Shown here: piece after piece, positions 2-11,818 of the stretch
Numbering within the stretch: the first letter of the stretch is position 1
Layout: each line of letters opens with the position of its first letter
Assembly: GCA_045539625.1 (NCBI GenBank)
Contig: JAZQFS010000064.1
Coordinates: forward strand, 4,891 to 68,890
Direction of reading: 5' to 3'
Length of the DNA stretch: 64,000 nucleotides
Source of the DNA: Eubacteriales bacterium
Lineage (GTDB): Bacteria > Bacillota > Clostridia > Oscillospirales > CAG-382
The notes under the pieces: generated by a model
Seen by the model: the letters and a program-made list of their open reading frames with translations, nothing else
What the model was told of the DNA's origin: nothing
Databases searched by the model: none
Made by a program: the position numbers and the translations under genes

Positions 2-1096
2 AATGACGAAAAGCTCCGTGAATACGGCAAATTTATATCAGATGCCTACAGCAAGCAAAAAGAGATAATCCTTGAGGCGACAAACGGCAAAGCACAGTAT
101 TTTACGTCAACTCTTTGGATGGAAGGCTCACTTCTTGCACAAAAGGATGCCGTACAGTTTCCCCAAAACGTAACGGTGATTTTTGCCGACAACGGACCAA
201 ATCAGATGTACGGTCCCGATTTTCACACAGTGCCCCGCAAGGACGGCACAACCTACGGAATATACTATCACGTGCAGTACTGGGATTACGGTCCTCATAT
301 GGCGCCTATGACAGGTATCGACAAGCTTCATTATAATCTGAAAAAAGCTTATGACAAGGGTGATAACACCTACTGTATTCTCAATTCCTCGTCCTTCCGT
401 GAGTTTACCTTTGAGCTGGGTGCATACGGCAGTATGATGTGGAATATGGAGGGCTTTGACAAGCAAGCTTATTATGAAGAATACGGCAAGGCTTTCGGTG
501 AGCATAAAGATGCGGTGACACAGGCTGTAAAAAAATATTTTGATAGCGTGGCTACGCTTCCCAACAAAAGTCTTACAAAGCATCACGGAAAATACTTCAA
601 TTACAATATTGACGAAATTGCCGACGGCGTGAAAAACTGTGTTATAAAGGATTGCTTTGCACTACGCCACGGAAATATGCTGGTGTCGGGTATAAATAAG
701 CCTCTCTGCGAAGAGGTGCATAACGAAATTTATGAGGCAATAAAGAAAGCCGTTCCAAAATATGAACAGCTCTTCTCGGAGCTTGACGGAATTGTAAAAA
801 AGCTGCCTGATGCACAAGCACTTCACGTAAAGACAAAATGGCAGAATTACTGCAGTATTATGCTTAATCTTTATAAGTGGTATACCTTTGTTTATGAGGC
901 AAAGAAATGCTATGACGAAAGGAATTTGACGGAATACGGGGACAAGGTAAAGCTTGCCGTACAAAGCCTTGAAGCTCTGTTGGATTTCAGAAAATGCGCC
1001 GAATACGGTGTGTTTGAAAACTGGTACAGGGGCGACGATAAGATGAATTTGATAACGGCTCTTGAAAAGACAAAAAAACTTGCACAAATACAGTGA
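2..1096 (+). CDS. GH115-like glycoside hydrolase (alpha-glucuronidase-like), 5'-truncated by window edge
   Basis: Frame open from base 2. Motifs VIFADNG and GIYYHVQYW resemble the GH115 DDN..G and G.YYH motifs. A hexuronate operon lies nearby. Confidence 0.55.
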   Translation, partial: NDEKLREYGKFISDAYSKQKEIILEATNGKAQYFTSTLWMEGSLLAQKDAVQFPQNVTVIFADNGPNQMYGPDFHTVPRKDGTTYGIYYHVQYWDYGPHMAPMTGIDKLHYNLKKAYDKGDNTYCILNSSSFREFTFELGAYGSMMWNMEGFDKQAYYEEYGKAFGEHKDAVTQAVKKYFDSVATLPNKSLTKHHGKYFNYNIDEIADGVKNCVIKDCFALRHGNMLVSGINKPLCEEVHNEIYEAIKKAVPKYEQLFSELDGIVKKLPDAQALHVKTKWQNYCSIMLNLYKWYTFVYEAKKCYDERNLTEYGDKVKLAVQSLEALLDFRKCAEYGVFENWYRGDDKMNLITALEKTKKLAQIQ

Positions 1097-5360: not shown

Positions 5361-6149
5361 TCAATAAGAGTTACGTCTGTAAGAGCCGGGAGTAAAGCCC
5401 GTATTTTTCTTGAAAAGGGAATGGAAGTGGGATTCTGAAGAAAAACCGCATTTTTTTGATACCTCGTCAAGAGGAATATCGGTGTTAATCAGATAATCCT
5501 TTGCGGCGTTAAGTCGAAGCTCGGTAAGGTATTGGTGGGGAGAAAAGCCCAGCTCCTGCTTAAAAAGACGAAGAACGTGCAGATGGGAGTAACCGCAAAG
5601 CCTTCCGAGGTCGCAAAGTGCAATGTTTTCGCTGTAATGTGACTGCATATAATCAAGGCAGATTTTGACACAGCTGCTGTATTTTTTACCTGAAACAACG
5701 TGGTCAAACAGCCTGCAGATAAGTGACAGCAGCATGGAATTGAGCATCACCGACGAGGTGAGCGAGGCGTTTCTGAACAAGGTCACCATCTGCTCAAAAT
5801 CCTCTTTAAAGGCATTGGAGGCGTGAAAAAACTTAGGAAGAGCACTCAGAATGGGATTTGTGTATACAGTGCCACTTTCGCCAAGGTCAAAGTAAATTGT
5901 ATAACACTTGTAGTGGTGAACACTGCAAAGCAAATCACCGGGACGTGAGAAACGAATGTCGCCGGGGTGAACTTTGTGAAGCACGCCGTCTATAATAACA
6001 CTGCCTTCACCTTCAAAATAAAAAGCAAGCTCATAGCAAAGAGCATAACGCTGCTTGCTTTTCCCCACGGGAGCAAATCTTGTATCGAAGTGGCGGCACA
6101 GTGATATTTTTGGCAGCATCTCTTCGGGAGCAAGATATATATCTGACAC
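5361..6149 (-). CDS. AraC-family regulator, divergent from uxaC
   Basis: N-terminal cupin and C-terminal double HTH (GFSSESHFHSLFKK). GTG start with GGAGG RBS. Confidence 0.9.
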   Translation of the reverse strand: MSDIYLAPEEMLPKISLCRHFDTRFAPVGKSKQRYALCYELAFYFEGEGSVIIDGVLHKVHPGDIRFSRPGDLLCSVHHYKCYTIYFDLGESGTVYTNPILSALPKFFHASNAFKEDFEQMVTLFRNASLTSSVMLNSMLLSLICRLFDHVVSGKKYSSCVKICLDYMQSHYSENIALCDLGRLCGYSHLHVLRLFKQELGFSPHQYLTELRLNAAKDYLINTDIPLDEVSKKCGFSSESHFHSLFKKNTGFTPGSYRRNSY

Positions 6150-6202: not shown

Positions 6203-6231
6203 TTGACACCTATCTAAACATAGCATATAAT
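6203..6231 (+). promoter_or_regulatory. Sigma-A promoter of the hexuronate operon
   Basis: Perfect TTGACA-17 bp-TATAAT. Confidence 0.8.
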
Positions 6232-6285: not shown

Positions 6286-7638
6286 GTGAAAGAAAACTAT
6301 ATGCTTTGCGACGGTTTTGCACTGTCGCTGTATGAAAAGTATGCAAAAAATCTGCCTGTAATTGACTATCACAACCACCTTGATGTCAAGGGCATTTCGG
6401 ATAACGTAAAAATAGAAAATATAACAAAGCTGTGGATTTCCTCCGATCCCTATAAGCACAGAGCAATGAGAATTTTAGGTGTTGAGGAAAAGTATATCAC
6501 GGGAAATGCAGATGACGGACAGAAGTTTGAAAAGTGGTATGAAAGCCTGCCTCTTCTTGCAGGGAATGTGCTTTTTGACTGGTCGGTAATGGAGCTTGAC
6601 AAGGTCTTGGGTGTTGACCTGCTATATGAGCTTGAAAAGGAAACTCCTGCCGAAGAAATGTGGCAAAGACTTAACGAAAAGGTGACGTCACTTACACCAA
6701 AACAAATTCTTTCCGGCTTTGACATTGAGTACCTGTCGCCTTGCGCCGCTTTTTGCGATGACCTTTCGGTGTTTGACGGACTTTGCAATATCCACCCGTC
6801 CTTAAGAGGCGATGACGGAACAAATGTGAGCGTTAGTACGGTCAAAGATTTGTCTCGGATAACGGGAGTAAAGATAATAAGCCTTGACGGCTACATATCC
6901 GCACTTGAAAAGAGAACAGCGGTTTTTGTAAAATACGGCTGTAAATTCTCAGACCATGCCGTGGACGACGGTTTTATATATTTTGAAGATGACGGCAAAA
7001 ATGAGGAGCGCTTCACAAAGCTTTTGTCAGGCTCAGAGCTGACGGCTGATGAAAAGCAAAGGCTGTACTGCTACGTACTTGTAAAGCTGTGCGGCATATA
7101 CGAAAAGTACGGCATCACGGTACAGCTTCATATGGGTGCTCTTCGCAAGACAAGCACACGTCTGAGAAATGTGGCAGGTCCTGCAGGAGGGTATGCTGCA
7201 ATGGGAAGCTGTGTGAAGGCCGACAGCATAACACGTATGCTTGACGATATAGAAAAATCGGGCTCACTTCCCAAAATTCTGCTGTTTAATCTTAATCCTT
7301 CGGATAATGCACTTATGGACACGCTTTGCGGCTCTTACAGCCGTGACGGAGTGATGAGCGTTGTGTCGAGAGGTCCTGCCTGGTGGTGGTGCGACCACTT
7401 AAAGGGGATAAATGATATGCTTGACAGCTTTTGTGCCTACAGTGTACTGTCCACCTTTACGGGAATGACAACCGACTCAAGAAGCCTGCTTTCCATAGTG
7501 AGACACGACTATTTCAGGCGTGTTCTGTGCTCGTACATAAGCAAAAAAGTGAAAGATGGAGCACTTGCTGACAGCGAAAAAATACTCGGCAAAATTGTTG
7601 AGAAAATGTGCTATAAAAACGCAAAAGAGTTAATATAG
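6286..7638 (+). CDS. uxaC: Glucuronate isomerase
   Basis: IDYHNHL, DPYKHRAMR, GPAWWWCDH, GMTTDSRS, RHDYFRRVLC. Confidence 0.9.
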   Translation: MKENYMLCDGFALSLYEKYAKNLPVIDYHNHLDVKGISDNVKIENITKLWISSDPYKHRAMRILGVEEKYITGNADDGQKFEKWYESLPLLAGNVLFDWSVMELDKVLGVDLLYELEKETPAEEMWQRLNEKVTSLTPKQILSGFDIEYLSPCAAFCDDLSVFDGLCNIHPSLRGDDGTNVSVSTVKDLSRITGVKIISLDGYISALEKRTAVFVKYGCKFSDHAVDDGFIYFEDDGKNEERFTKLLSGSELTADEKQRLYCYVLVKLCGIYEKYGITVQLHMGALRKTSTRLRNVAGPAGGYAAMGSCVKADSITRMLDDIEKSGSLPKILLFNLNPSDNALMDTLCGSYSRDGVMSVVSRGPAWWWCDHLKGINDMLDSFCAYSVLSTFTGMTTDSRSLLSIVRHDYFRRVLCSYISKKVKDGALADSEKILGKIVEKMCYKNAKELI

Positions 7639-7650
7639 GAGGAGCAAATA

Positions 7651-8568
7651 ATGATTAAGTTCAATGACAGAGAAGAAATAATCCAGCTTACACCTCTCTG
7701 GAAGGGTGAGCGTTTTGACGACGGACGTCCCAAGGTTGCGGACAAGCATCTTGATGCACTTGAAAAGATGACTCTTGAAGAGGTTTGGAAGCCTATATAT
7801 GTTCTCGGATACGAAAATCAGTTTGTGGGCGGCGGCGAAAATCCCCTTCAGGTGCTCCACGATGACGGCAGAAAGCTTATCGGAAGAGCCGTAACATGTT
7901 CATTCTGTCCCACACGTCCCGACCTTCACGAAACCATGTTCGGCATCGGTGCAGATGAGGGCAGAAAGGGAAACTACAATCAATGGGTTATTGACAGCCT
8001 TGTTGAAAGAGACGTTGTTGTTGCCGATATGTACGATAAAATCTATAAGGGTACATTTCTCGGCGGTAACCTTACAACTGCAATAAAGACAAGAACAAAA
8101 AACGGCGGTGCAGTAATCTGGGGCGGTATTCGTGACGTGGAACAGATGAAAAAGGTGCCCGATGTTCAGGTTTACTACAGAGGCATAGATCCTACACCTA
8201 TACGTGAGTTTGTTATGAAGAGCTTCAATTCCGTTACAAACTTCGGAGGCGCTGTTTGTCTTCCCGGTGACGTTGTGTTCGGTGCAGGCGGAGGAGTTCT
8301 GTTTATTCCCAGCCACCTTGTTGCAGATGTTGTTGAAGGTGCGGCAAAGACTCACGTTAAGGACGATTTCGGCTTTGAGATGATTGGTCAGAATAAGTTC
8401 ACAACCGCTCAGATTGACAGAAACACCTGGACTGTTGAAATGCTTGATATGCTTCTTGAATGGATTAATACCGATCCAAGAGGCGAACAGTACCGTGACC
8501 TTGATTGGTCAAAGGAATACGACCTTGCCATTAACGGCGATCCCAACGACACACAGACGGCACTTTGA
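7651..8568 (+). CDS. RraA/HMG-aldolase family protein
   Basis: LIGRAVT, LGGNLTTA..GAVIWGGIRD and PGDVVFG..GVLFIP motifs. Confidence 0.8.
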   Translation: MIKFNDREEIIQLTPLWKGERFDDGRPKVADKHLDALEKMTLEEVWKPIYVLGYENQFVGGGENPLQVLHDDGRKLIGRAVTCSFCPTRPDLHETMFGIGADEGRKGNYNQWVIDSLVERDVVVADMYDKIYKGTFLGGNLTTAIKTRTKNGGAVIWGGIRDVEQMKKVPDVQVYYRGIDPTPIREFVMKSFNSVTNFGGAVCLPGDVVFGAGGGVLFIPSHLVADVVEGAAKTHVKDDFGFEMIGQNKFTTAQIDRNTWTVEMLDMLLEWINTDPRGEQYRDLDWSKEYDLAINGDPNDTQTAL

Positions 8569-8569
8569 A

Positions 8570-8625
8570 AATAATGAATAATGAACAATGAATAATGAAT
8601 AATGAATAATGAATAATGAATAATT
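8570..8625. repeat. Heptamer tandem repeat (AATAATG)x8
   Basis: Six perfect and two variant units in the intergenic gap. Confidence 0.95.
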
Positions 8626-8678
8626 GAGGTTAGAATTTTTGCTGAATTTATCATTAAATGAATTGGAGAATTATCAAG

Positions 8679-9527
8679 ATGAGTACATATTTTGAAGGAA
8701 AAGTTGCAGTTGTTACAGGTGCAGGCGGAACGATATGCTCTGAAATTGCAAGAGACCTCGCAGGACTGGGAATAAAGATTGTGCTTGTGGGAAGAACAGC
8801 TGAAAAGCTTGAAAAGGTTGAAAAGGAAATAAAAGAAAAGGGCGGCACCTGTATGTGTGTGTCATGTGATGTTACAGATGAAAAGGCGGTTGAAGCGCTT
8901 GCTGAAACTGTAGAAAAAGAATACGGCGGCTGCGATTTTCTTATAAACGGTGCGGGCGGAAACAATCCAAAAGCAATGCCGACGGTAACTGCCTTTGACG
9001 AAAGAGAGCTTCAGGAAGAAAGACCTGAGGATTTCAAAGGCTTTTACAATATTGATATGCAGGCTTTTGAATCGGTGCTGAAAATTAACACCATGGGTAC
9101 GGTTTATCCCATAAAAGCCTTTGCAAAGCAAATGATTAAAAAAGGAAGCGGCAGTATAATAAACTTTGCCAGCATGAACAGCTACTGTCCTTTAACCCGT
9201 TGCTTTGCATATGCTATGAGCAAGGCGGCGGTTGTAAATCTTACCCAGTCCTTTGCGGCATACTTCGCAAATACGGGAATCAGAATCAACGCCATTGCTC
9301 CCGGTTTTATTGTAAATGAAAGAAGCAAGGCGTACCTTGGTACCGTTGAGGACGGTCTTACAAAAAGAGGACAGCAGGTTATAGGTCATACACCTATGGG
9401 TAAATTCGGCAAAGCACAGGATATTACAGGCTGTGTCCGCTGGCTTATCGATGAAAACGCTTCCTCCTTTGTGACGGGCACAACAATTCCTGTTGACGGC
9501 GGATTTTTGACACTCAGCGGTGTGTAG
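8679..9527 (+). CDS. uxuB: SDR-family D-mannonate oxidoreductase (fructuronate reductase)
   Basis: TGAGGTIC, INGAGGN, YAMSK, NAIAPG motifs. Located between uxaC and uxuA. RBS favours ATG 8679. Confidence 0.75.
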   Translation: MSTYFEGKVAVVTGAGGTICSEIARDLAGLGIKIVLVGRTAEKLEKVEKEIKEKGGTCMCVSCDVTDEKAVEALAETVEKEYGGCDFLINGAGGNNPKAMPTVTAFDERELQEERPEDFKGFYNIDMQAFESVLKINTMGTVYPIKAFAKQMIKKGSGSIINFASMNSYCPLTRCFAYAMSKAAVVNLTQSFAAYFANTGIRINAIAPGFIVNERSKAYLGTVEDGLTKRGQQVIGHTPMGKFGKAQDITGCVRWLIDENASSFVTGTTIPVDGGFLTLSGV

Positions 9528-9708
9528 ATTGTTGATGCTTTACGGATATTACTTCTCTTAAAAAGTAATCAAAAGAATTTATATCGGCTCAACCGACGAA
9601 AATGCTTTAAACGGAGACAGCCAAAATAAAGTTCTTGCGGAACTTCTTTCAAGAAGTGACCGTACTCCTGTCAAAAATAAAGTAACTATTTAGAAAGAAA
9701 GTGAAAAA

Positions 9709-10656
9709 ATGCTTCTTACAGATTATTTCAGATACCCCAAGGACAACACATGGGATATAGCAAGGCTGTGCGGAGTTGAGCACGGTACAATCCGTCTTCC
9801 CGAGGACGGAAAATTTGACTATTGCGACATTTCACACTGGAAAAAGGTATACGATGACTTTTGCGACTTTGGCATAAAGCCCATCATTATAGAGCCTATG
9901 CCCAACGAGCTTCACGACCATATCAAGGCAGGGGACGAAAAGCGTGACGAGTGCATCGAAAAGGTAATAAAGATGCTGCCTGTTATGGACGAGCTTGATA
10001 TAAGAACAATCTGCTTTAACTGGATGGCTCACGTGGGCTGGTACAGGTCAAGCTCCACAATTCCCGAAAGGGGAGGAGCACTTGTAACGGGCTTTGATAT
10101 GTCGGAGTATGTACCGACAGAGCACGCAATAAGCGAAAACCGGCTTTGGGACAACTATGAGTATTTCATAAAGGCAGTGCTACCTACAGCGGAAAAATAC
10201 GGTATAAAGCTGGCACTTCACCCCGACGATCCGCCGAGAAATTTAGGCAATGTGTGCAGAATAATGACAAGCCTTGACAACATCAAAAAGGCTGTGTACG
10301 GCATTTGCCAAAGCGATGCTCTTGGCGTTACAATGTGTCAGGCAAATTTCCACATTATGGGCGAGGATTTGAACAAGGTTATCCCCCAGCTTGCCGAGAA
10401 AATTTTCTTTGTACATTTTCGCAACACAACGGGAAATATCGACAAATTCCGCGAAACCTTCCATGATAACGGCGATCTGCCCATGGCGCACCTTTTAAAG
10501 CTGTATGCCGACAACGGCGTTGATGTACCTGTGCGTGTTGACCACGTACCGACTATGCCTATGGAGCAAAGCGTAAATCAGGGCTATGATGCTCTGGGAA
10601 GATTTTTTGCAATAGGCTATCTAAAGGGGATAATTGAGGCTGTATGCGGTAAATAA
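9709..10656 (+). CDS. uxuA: Mannonate dehydratase
   Basis: ICFNWM, LALHPDDPP, VHFRN, FHDNGD, RVDHVP, GYLKG. Confidence 0.9.
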   Translation: MLLTDYFRYPKDNTWDIARLCGVEHGTIRLPEDGKFDYCDISHWKKVYDDFCDFGIKPIIIEPMPNELHDHIKAGDEKRDECIEKVIKMLPVMDELDIRTICFNWMAHVGWYRSSSTIPERGGALVTGFDMSEYVPTEHAISENRLWDNYEYFIKAVLPTAEKYGIKLALHPDDPPRNLGNVCRIMTSLDNIKKAVYGICQSDALGVTMCQANFHIMGEDLNKVIPQLAEKIFFVHFRNTTGNIDKFRETFHDNGDLPMAHLLKLYADNGVDVPVRVDHVPTMPMEQSVNQGYDALGRFFAIGYLKGIIEAVCGK

Positions 10657-10664
10657 CGATTTTT

Positions 10665-10697
10665 GCACGGACTGTTTTTTCGGTTCGTGCTTTTTTT
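10665..10697 (+). terminator. Intrinsic terminator
   Basis: GCACGGACT...GGTTCGTGC followed by T7. Confidence 0.7.
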
Positions 10698-10834
10698 GTG
10701 CCAATCTTGTGAAATACTGAGAACAATTTTTATATTTTTGTGTTAAAATTGGGCTTTTTTTGAAAAAAGGTATTGAAAGAGGTGAAAGAATTTGATATAA
10801 TTGTGTCAAATTTACACGGTAGAGGTGCAAAGCA

Positions 10835-11818
10835 ATGACAAAGGTTGAGCAGGATATCAAGGTTGTTACACGAAACCCCGATTCAGGGGTGTCGATCTGG
10901 GACGTTCAGGTGACGGAGGAAGAGCCGGGGACAAAAAACAATGTAGATCCCAAAATGGTGGAGCTGACAAAGCACCACAGAATGCATAATCACGTATTTA
11001 ATGAAATTGTGCTTGTTGTAAGAGGTGAAGCTAATATCGTATCCATGAATGACGGTATTTCAATCAAAGCGCCCTTTCTTGTTGTTTATCCCGCAGGCGT
11101 GCCTCACGTTCAGATTAACAGCTACGAGCACGGATATAAAAGATACCTTATCAACTGCTTTGACGAGTTTTTTGCAAGAAGCGGGCTTTCGGGCGAGGAA
11201 TACGATGCCATTGCCAACGAGCAGCAGGTTTACGCCATTCAGCTTGAAGAGTCGGAAAAGGAAATTCTTGAAGCCATCTGCAACCTTATAATGACCTTCG
11301 GTGAAGATGAGGTTGAAGCAAAGGAAGAAATGATTTCCATGTTCATACGCCGTGTGGCAAAGCTCAAGTGTAAGGAAAATCTCCTTCGTGAAAGCGATGT
11401 CACCAACTTCGGTAAACACTATTTCGGCTCGCTTTTAAAGTACATTGCCGATAACTGCGGCGAAAAGCTGTCACTGGGTGTGCTTGCTTCCACTTTCTAT
11501 GTCAGCCGTACAAAGCTTGCAACCGACTTTAACGAGGTTATGGGCATGAGTGTGGGTGAATACATATTAAAGGTAAGAATTGACAGGGCAAGAGTAAAGC
11601 TTGTTGACGGCAAGAGTATATCCGAGGTGGCATTTGGTTGCGGTTTTGCTTCCACAAGCTATTTTATACAAAGCTTCAAGAAAATTATGGACATTACCCC
11701 AAAACAGTTTATGGAGACTGTAAGGGCAAAAAAGGATTATGCCAACCTTACGTATCAGAAGACGGAGTTTGATGACTATGTAAGCTTTAATCCAAAAAAA
11801 TACAGAGAAAAGCTATAA
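10835..11818 (+). CDS. AraC-family regulator
   Basis: Cupin H.H motif and double HTH. Paralog of 16195..17142. Confidence 0.9.
   Translation: MTKVEQDIKVVTRNPDSGVSIWDVQVTEEEPGTKNNVDPKMVELTKHHRMHNHVFNEIVLVVRGEANIVSMNDGISIKAPFLVVYPAGVPHVQINSYEHGYKRYLINCFDEFFARSGLSGEEYDAIANEQQVYAIQLEESEKEILEAICNLIMTFGEDEVEAKEEMISMFIRRVAKLKCKENLLRESDVTNFGKHYFGSLLKYIADNCGEKLSLGVLASTFYVSRTKLATDFNEVMGMSVGEYILKVRIDRARVKLVDGKSISEVAFGCGFASTSYFIQSFKKIMDITPKQFMETVRAKKDYANLTYQKTEFDDYVSFNPKKYREKL

Follow-up and report, generated by a model that had tools for sequence, protein, structure and literature searches.

The window analysed here, a stretch of 64,000 nucleotides (nt) from contig C64 (JAZQFS010000064.1) of a Clostridia genome of rumen type (Eubacteriales, G000) that is 97% complete, carries a set of hexuronate genes with an additional gene for an RraA-like protein in their midst, and the question raised by this locus is what such a protein, currently annotated just as 'RraA family protein', does among enzymes of sugar-acid catabolism. 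Four co-directional open reading frames (ORFs) span positions 6286–10656 (coordinates are window positions unless a contig or locus is named), the same positions as in a preliminary description of this DNA, and the ORFs together with their profile matches bore out its gene order, uxaC-RraA-uxuB-uxuA. We refer to the four genes as uxaC′, rraA-like, SDR′ (SDR, short-chain dehydrogenase/reductase) and uxuA′. The analysis established the gene identities, the operon structure, the paralogy, the protein fold, a conserved Arg-Asp pair and a strict coupling to dehydratases; the substrate of the RraA-like protein and the aldol cleavage itself we infer. The reading that we favour, to which we give a probability of roughly 45%, is that the protein is a metal-dependent class II aldolase that converts products of the 2-keto-3-deoxy-gluconate (KDG) type to pyruvate and an aldehyde, making the operon and the related clusters of its relatives complete non-phosphorylative routes.

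The first gene, uxaC′ (6286–7638, + strand), encodes a divergent uronate isomerase paralogue of 450 amino acids (aa; PF02614, 394 bits, E 9e-118) in which the HxH motif DYHNH is visible. The rraA-like gene (7651–8568, + strand) starts 12 nt past the end of uxaC′, with an AGGAGG ribosome-binding site ahead of it, and encodes a long RraA-like protein of 305 aa, P0001 (PF03737, 50.1 bits against a cut-off of 24.5). It is followed by SDR′ (8658–9527, + strand), a paralogue of the SDR-type D-mannonate/fructuronate oxidoreductase (NF006132, 327 bits against 281), and by uxuA′ (9709–10656, + strand), a short (315 aa) paralogue of the mannonate dehydratase family (PF03786, 204 bits). A sigma-70-type promoter (TTGACA-17-TATAAT, 6203–6231, + strand, matching the consensus at 12 of 12 positions) and an intrinsic terminator (10665–10690, + strand, a 10-bp stem with six GC pairs, then a T-run) bracket these genes, and a + strand terminator scan between the four genes found no comparable long-stem site, only a weak 5-bp stem at 6958–6972 inside uxaC′. 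Thus, the four genes form one operon. The uxaC′-rraA arrangement is not a chance juxtaposition, because an identical junction was found at a congeneric locus (L058), where the RraA-like protein was 98% and UxaC′ 75% identical to the window copies.

The preliminary description had argued from an operon that lacks kdgK and kdgA. On the whole of contig C64, Eda (PF01081) and PfkB (PF00294) profiles indeed gave zero matches, but both genes were found elsewhere in the genome: a KDG kinase, KdgK, on C42 (592 bits to the kinase part of NF041633) and Eda on C54 (NF004325, 274 bits against a cut-off of 241). They are accompanied by a canonical UxaC on C75 (627 bits to Pfam, compared with 394 for the window copy), an SDR-type UxuB on C28 (429 bits) and a canonical UxuA on C55 (486 bits), so that the full set is present and the argument from absence falls. 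The genome further encodes DgoK/DgoA as well as a galactonate dehydratase whose gene is paired with an Eda-like one. When compared to their canonical counterparts, UxaC′, SDR′ and UxuA′ were 30%, 41% and 30% identical, respectively, and two of them scored below the NCBIfam cut-offs (UxaC′, 340 against 387 bits for the equivalog; UxuA′, 171 against 191 bits for NF003027). The operon thus represents a second hexuronate set, paralogous to the canonical one and divergent from it, and not the main hexuronate operon minus its last two genes. Its first three steps have homologues in the Ashwell isomerase pathway (UxaC-UxuB-UxuA-KdgK-KdgA), as judged from PF02614, NF006132 and PF03786, from which it differs in the divergence of these genes (30–41% identity, two below cut-off), in having no kinase or Eda, and in the additional gene for a protein of the RraA fold. 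A genome with two uronate isomerases has precedent, an example being Bh0493 of B. halodurans. As a separate observation, the main Eda (C54:36694–37656, L001:1486–2448) is 320 aa long, and about 110 residues past its KDPG-aldolase domain match no Pfam family; Eda open frames of 320–345 aa recurred across genomes of the taxonomic family.

To which reactions the RraA-like protein is tied was apparent from a phyletic comparison of 151 genomes of the taxonomic family, which are mutually related, so that the counts carry no formal probability. The long rraA-like gene was present in 31 genomes, distributed over 8 of 15 genera. A 457-aa dehydratase of the enolase superfamily (MR/MLE) was found in 28 genomes and the short UxuA′ in 15, and every one of these genomes (28/28 and 15/15) was RraA-positive. 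Conversely, all 30 carriers of a full-length RraA-like protein had the MR/MLE dehydratase and/or UxuA′, and a search of the 120 RraA-negative genomes found neither dehydratase in any of them. The RraA-positive genomes devoid of the MR/MLE dehydratase were limited to three: G000 and its congener G108, in both of which the rraA-like gene lies inside the uxuA′ operon, and G099, which is 69% complete, holds a fragment of the rraA-like gene only, and showed neither dehydratase. The match persisted inside six polymorphic genera and where the genes sit on separate contigs. Canonical UxaC and UxuA, by comparison, were present in many RraA-negative genomes. The MR/MLE dehydratase itself scored below every NCBIfam cut-off, and its best relatives in the Protein Data Bank (PDB) have no assigned function. 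The coupling of the long rraA-like gene to two unrelated dehydratases is thus strict, with no exception among full-length copies, and the RraA-like protein probably processes the keto-deoxy sugar acid made by these partners. Since the comparative data tie it to makers of 2-keto-3-deoxy sugar acids, action on KDG is the most economical reading.

Gene neighbourhoods in relatives were surveyed at 20 loci. In 13 of them, an AraC-type regulator and the MR/MLE dehydratase are followed by RraA, a lactonase (metallo-beta-lactamase-fold or beta-propeller), an SDR and one to four cytoplasmic GH10-like genes (GH, glycoside hydrolase family). One locus has the order RraA, lactonase, SDR, UxuA′ and GH38, another UxuA′, SDR and RraA; two have RraA after an aminotransferase, and at the remaining three RraA stands alone or near a canonical uxaC. 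The RraA clusters of this survey that contain the MR/MLE dehydratase or UxuA′ held no kinase and no additional aldolase. The window protein was 90% identical to the copies in MR/MLE clusters of the congeners G033 and G076 and, because the same orthologue serves both those clusters and the uxuA′ operon, the substrate is expected to be shared or very similar in the two settings. This argues for a 2-keto-3-deoxy acid supplied by the dehydratase as the common substrate which, for a UxuA homologue, is KDG. An uxaC′-SDR′-uxuA′ module with no internal rraA was found in G065, G023 and G010, and partially in G055 and G100, all of which carry an rraA-like gene elsewhere; its position between uxaC′ and SDR′ is particular to this genome and G108. 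In one further genome (G038:C20:3150–3809, L065:3153–3785), UxaC′ is short and has in-frame stops (one TGA, one TAA) and the adjoining SDR′ and UxuA′ look intact, as if the module were probably decaying.

By pathway knowledge, the relatives' clusters are reminiscent of non-phosphorylative sugar-acid routes, in which a sugar dehydrogenase, a lactonase and a dehydratase precede cleavage of a 2-keto-3-deoxy acid. The terminal aldolase is of class II in some of them, for instance the HpcH/HpaI-family member LRA4/YfaU, which acts on L-KDR, and in Sulfolobus it is a class I enzyme that cleaves KDG. These routes differ from the present case in that the fold of the cleaving enzyme is unrelated to RraA, and the host here is an anaerobic gut member of the Clostridia. 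In the literature, a haloarchaeal mannan cluster lists an RraA gene next to ManD.

The PF03737 match of P0001 is confined to residues 66–216, and conserved extensions lengthen the protein by about 65 aa at the N terminus and about 85 aa at the C terminus. Its homologues number in the thousands, and the 120 clusters closest to it, at 84–93% identity, are named, if at all, only 'RraA family protein', as were the clusters returned by an ESM Atlas search. A library clustered at 50% held 112 representatives at E<1e-30, and full-length members of 300–330 aa have in common an N-terminal TP.W.GER..DGRP.V signature and a C-terminal helical extension. An AlphaFold2 model of P0001 (mean predicted local distance difference test score, pLDDT, 92) showed the RraA fold, with target-normalised TM-scores of 0.72–0.89; the best structural matches were PSPTO_3204, 5IR2, RraAS2 of S. 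coelicolor, the HMG/CHA aldolase and YER010Cp, and Foldseek gave a probability of 1.00 to 3K4I, 5IR2, 5X15, 3NOJ and 2C5Q. The closest solved relative was RraAS2 (PDB 5X15; target-normalised TM-score 0.86–0.89), which the family profile matched at E 1.4e-32 over the core and the C-terminal helical extension. The GG.RD motif noticed in the preliminary description is present as GGIRD at residues 158–162 (nt 8122–8136). In a profile alignment, R161-D162 of this motif align with R123-D124 (VRD) of the HMG/CHA aldolase (LigK/ProA/GalC) of Pseudomonas putida F1 (PDB 3NOJ), and at least 90% of a set of 30 diverse members of the family keep the pair. HMG/CHA aldolase is a class II pyruvate aldolase acting on 4-hydroxy-2-keto acids, in which R123 is essential and stabilises the pyruvate enolate, and D124 and E199 bind the metal (PMC5065237). 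The two proteins are alike in their alpha-beta-beta-alpha RraA fold (Foldseek E 1.4e-13), and P0001 keeps both the Arg used in catalysis and the Asp that binds the metal. The two are about 16% identical and differ in the terminal extensions of P0001, in its Gly for Asp102, in the lack of an identified Glu199 equivalent, and in setting, which is aromatic catabolism for the known enzyme and sugar-acid catabolism for P0001. Assignment of P0001 to the LigK/PcmE HMG/CHA aldolase equivalog was rejected, its scores being 38.3 against 304.5 bits for TIGR02798 and 32.3 against 179 bits for NF006731.

Similarity to RraA proteins at large also allows for a protein that has no dedicated part in the sugar-acid route, whether as a general enzyme (oxaloacetate decarboxylase or alpha-keto-acid enzyme) or as a protein regulator of the RraA type. 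Oxaloacetate decarboxylase activity is common among RraA-like proteins (PMC5065237), the title of PDB entry 5X15 describes RraAS2 as an RNase ES inhibitor, and in two genomes of one genus (L018:6814–8910, L034:2915–5051) an 83–84% identical RraA-like gene lies directly 3′ of a class I/II aminotransferase gene, with the MR/MLE dehydratase elsewhere. We nevertheless hold a role of this kind to be very improbable: it would leave the strict co-occurrence with two specific dehydratases, neither of which is in any RraA-negative genome, as well as the co-transcription of the gene within the operon, to be accounted for. RraAS2, moreover, is about 22% identical to P0001, which is encoded in a catabolic operon, and a profile search of the 97%-complete genome for RNase E/G (PF10150) found none. 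An RraA-type RNase E regulator, a cytoplasmic protein of about 160 aa, was rejected on the grounds that no RNase E/G was found in the 97%-complete genome, that the protein has 305 aa, and that homologues are secreted; such periplasmic proteins could not act on RNases.

In the mechanism that we propose, the operon would constitute a self-contained second hexuronate route supplied by the nearby cytoplasmic GH115 alpha-glucuronidase. Released (4-O-methyl)glucuronate would be isomerised by UxaC′, the resulting keto-uronate would be reduced by SDR′ to a mannonate-type aldonate, and UxuA′ would eliminate the C3 substituent to yield KDG. The long RraA-like protein would then hold the alpha-keto-acid end via a divalent metal bound at D162, with R161 stabilising the pyruvate enolate, and would split KDG into pyruvate and D-glyceraldehyde as a class II, non-phosphorylative aldolase working in parallel to the KdgK/Eda route of the genome. 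Should it prove to be an aldolase, a third kind of enzyme that cleaves KDG, unrelated to the others, would be added, and anaerobic gut Clostridia would run non-phosphorylative sugar-acid routes alongside the classical one. Literature searches on RraA with glucuronate or uxaC, 2-keto-3-deoxy aldolases, mannonate dehydratase or GH115, PDB 5IR2, and glucosaminate or fitness found no characterisation of the long RraA subfamily, and no paper assigning it a function or describing its pairing with dehydratases. The paralogous second set beside a canonical pathway, the dehydratase coupling, the GH115 link and a periplasmic clade with clustered KdgK and Eda are new here; we take the protein to be a keto-acid enzyme of the RraA fold in a metabolic role not described before.

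A different chemistry is suggested by FlDet of Flavobacterium sp. UMI-01, which, from its published description, is an RraA-like protein activated by divalent metals and acting on a 2-keto-3-deoxy sugar acid (PMC8563752). By analogy, the long RraA-like protein could, in the manner of FlDet or KdaD, dehydrate 2-keto-3-deoxy sugar acids at C4: with the keto acid bound to the metal, a proton would be taken from C3 and the substituent at C4 (water, possibly methanol) would leave, giving an unsaturated or diketo acid and no pyruvate. FlDet, with 237 aa, turns 2-keto-3-deoxy-hexarate into alpha-ketoglutarate semialdehyde by dehydration and decarboxylation, and its authors report RraAS2 (26% identity) to be its closest characterised relative (PMC8563752), the same protein that is the closest solved relative of the long RraA family. 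The SDR-lactonase-dehydratase-RraA clusters would suit a Weimberg-like or oxidative-uronate scheme equally, and the conserved R21, R26, R79 and R89 could hold a second anionic group. FlDet, however, accepts only a dicarboxylate (KDGR) and is inactive on KDG, its 6-phosphate KDPG and DEHU (PMC8563752); no semialdehyde dehydrogenase recurred across the 20 loci, and a dehydrated KDG product has no known pathway. A C4-dehydratase thus seems to us rather unlikely.

The family extends beyond the Clostridia. Homologues from Bacteroidota (Sediminicola, Leeuwenhoekiella, Daejeonella and Chitinophagaceae), 35–50% identical to the window protein, carry Sec signal peptides, and their neighbours include UxuA or MR/MLE dehydratases with twin-arginine translocation (Tat) signals, pyrroloquinoline quinone (PQQ) or cytochrome-c dehydrogenases and a DUF4440 lipoprotein; an SBF-type transporter follows the homologue. 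In 2 of the 15 Bacteroidota loci (L041 and L045), KdgK and Eda also come after it within the cluster, one of these loci having uxaC and uxuB as well. The homologues of Daejeonella and Chitinophagaceae have as neighbours a lactonase, a RidA with a Tat signal and a SelA-like enzyme dependent on pyridoxal phosphate (PLP), which is a different way to a keto-deoxy acid. Every Bacteroidota context still points to keto-deoxy sugar acids. Whatever the chemistry, the pairing with two unrelated dehydratases marks a widespread sugar-acid catabolic step, cytoplasmic in Clostridia and periplasmic in Bacteroidota. At three loci from Bacteroidota and other metagenomic sources (L036:6801–11478, L039:6918–13733, L043:6588–15714) we also observed UxuA-family and enolase-superfamily 'dehydratases', a xylose-isomerase-like TIM-barrel protein and a DUF362 protein, every one of them with a Tat signal; these proteins adjoin a secreted RraA-like protein and PQQ dehydrogenases, and from gene content the sets look like a complete periplasmic pathway for sugar acids. 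In Leeuwenhoekiella, three UxuA-like copies and two RraA-like ones lie in tandem.

Several of these results weigh against a KDG-cleaving aldolase. Part of the Bacteroidota contexts, with a secreted protein and with KdgK and Eda in the same cluster, is easier to reconcile with an enzyme whose step precedes the uptake and phosphorylation of KDG than with a KDG-cleaving one. Completion of the pathway does not require cleavage by the RraA-like protein, because KdgK and Eda are both present in this genome and all but one of the 31 RraA-positive genomes (30) have retained Eda, a count that also led us to reject a genome-wide replacement of KdgK/Eda by RraA. FlDet, the only characterised RraA-family enzyme acting on a keto-deoxy sugar acid that we found in the literature, is not an aldolase and rejects KDG (PMC8563752). 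The equivalent of Asp102 is Gly in this clade, and no second metal ligand could be assigned: the positions +2 and +3 after D162 are not conserved, the profile alignment to 3NOJ ends before Glu199, and the conserved D207 and D238 of P0001 are candidates. Finally, between the same genome pairs RraA-like proteins were 83–84% identical and their operon partners 46–71%, and so high a conservation relative to its partners is unusual for a peripheral, sugar-specific aldolase. The non-phosphorylative KDG cleavage put forward in the preliminary description therefore keeps its footing in the co-transcription of the rraA-like gene and its tie to makers of keto-deoxy acids, but is weakened by the retention of Eda and by the two Bacteroidota loci with KdgK and Eda beside a homologue.

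The same observations could be explained by an accessory enzyme that readies the dehydratase product for transport and for KdgK/Eda, by enol-keto tautomerisation, ring opening or anomerisation, C4 epimerisation or processing of a 4-substituted derivative, and that does not end the pathway. Such a role would account for periplasmic homologues that have Tat-signal dehydratases (UxuA or MR/MLE) on one side and an SBF transporter on the other, with KdgK and Eda clustered in L041 and L045, for the other Bacteroidota loci with a lactonase, Tat-signal RidA and SelA-like enzyme, for the retained Eda, and for a sequence that is very highly conserved across differing contexts; RraA-fold aldolases are also able to enolise pyruvate (PMC5065237). 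On the other hand, an activity of this type is known for no RraA-fold enzyme, the canonical UxuA route runs with no RraA-like protein in RraA-negative genomes, and the clostridial clusters have no kinase or aldolase beside the dehydratase/RraA pair. We regard an accessory enzyme as unlikely, and retain the class II aldolase as the preferred reading.

The source of the hexuronate is indicated by the 3′ part of a GH115 alpha-glucuronidase gene at the beginning of the window (2–1096, + strand, PF15979). The full ORF (C64:4016–5986, 656 aa, N terminus MIKLFDKSY...) starts 874 nt upstream of the window and encodes no signal peptide, so uronic-acid-bearing oligosaccharides are presumably imported and trimmed in the cytoplasm. 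The preliminary description had suggested a test of co-occurrence with GH115 and GH67: GH115 was found in 5 of the 151 family genomes, all five RraA-positive, and no GH67 was found in this genome. GH115 adjoins UxaC′ in G055 and G048 and lies 5 kb away in this genome, which places the module near a cytoplasmic GH115 in three genera. This link favours (4-O-methyl)glucuronate as the substrate of the operon and makes the uxaC′/SDR′/uxuA′ module a concrete candidate for the metabolism of xylan-derived 4-O-methylglucuronate. Just upstream of the GH115 gene, a divergent ORF (G000:C64:1508–3796, L063) encodes a 762-aa cytoplasmic protein whose N terminus appears GH95-like by eye, which together with the signal-less GH115 suggests an intracellular debranching set for imported oligosaccharides.

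It is conceivable, though in our view doubtful, that the operon is the missing bacterial route for the 4-O-methyl-D-glucuronate released by GH115, for which a literature search found no published catabolic route. UxaC′ and SDR′ would turn it into 3-O-methyl-D-mannonate and, because by carbon numbering C4 of glucuronate becomes C3 of mannonate, the methoxy group would be the leaving group of the UxuA′ step, so that methanol would be expelled in place of water to give KDG. Alternatively, the RraA-fold enzyme might carry out a metal-assisted elimination on a substituted keto-deoxy acid, which would be a new activity of the fold, common to the periplasmic sugar-acid pathway of Bacteroidota. RraA as a required demethylating step, a stricter form of the 4-O-methyl step suggested in the preliminary description, was rejected because carbon numbering puts the methoxy group where UxuA′ expels its leaving group and because RraA occurs in GH38 and GH10-like contexts too.

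Two AraC-family regulator genes flank the operon, one divergent from it (5361–6149, − strand, PF12833 and PF00165) and one beyond the terminator (10835–11818, + strand, PF12833) with its own promoter, a promoter-like site at 10773–10801; AraC genes flank the RraA clusters of relatives too. The spacer between the rraA-like gene and SDR′ holds a tandem repeat, (AATAATG) × 7.9 with a perfect period (8570–8624, Tandem Repeats Finder score 103), which, lying between the rraA-like stop and the SDR′ start, could alter downstream coupling or expression, or vary by slippage. No ribosome-binding site precedes the listed start of SDR′, ATG 8658; another ATG in the same frame, at 8679, sits 10 nt past GGAG, agrees with the NCBIfam alignment start, and is likely to be the true start. 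Among the library representatives, the sole fusion resembling a genuine two-domain protein is P0180 (532 aa, metagenomic), in which a complete DUF1080 (3-keto-disaccharide hydrolase) domain is fused N-terminal to the long RraA-like domain. Most of the other apparent fusions, to pieces of GH2, SDR, helicase and hydrogenase, seem to be assembly chimeras with truncated domains. In P0219, the RraA-like domain is joined to a region with a weak, partial glucuronoyl-esterase-like (CE15-like) match.

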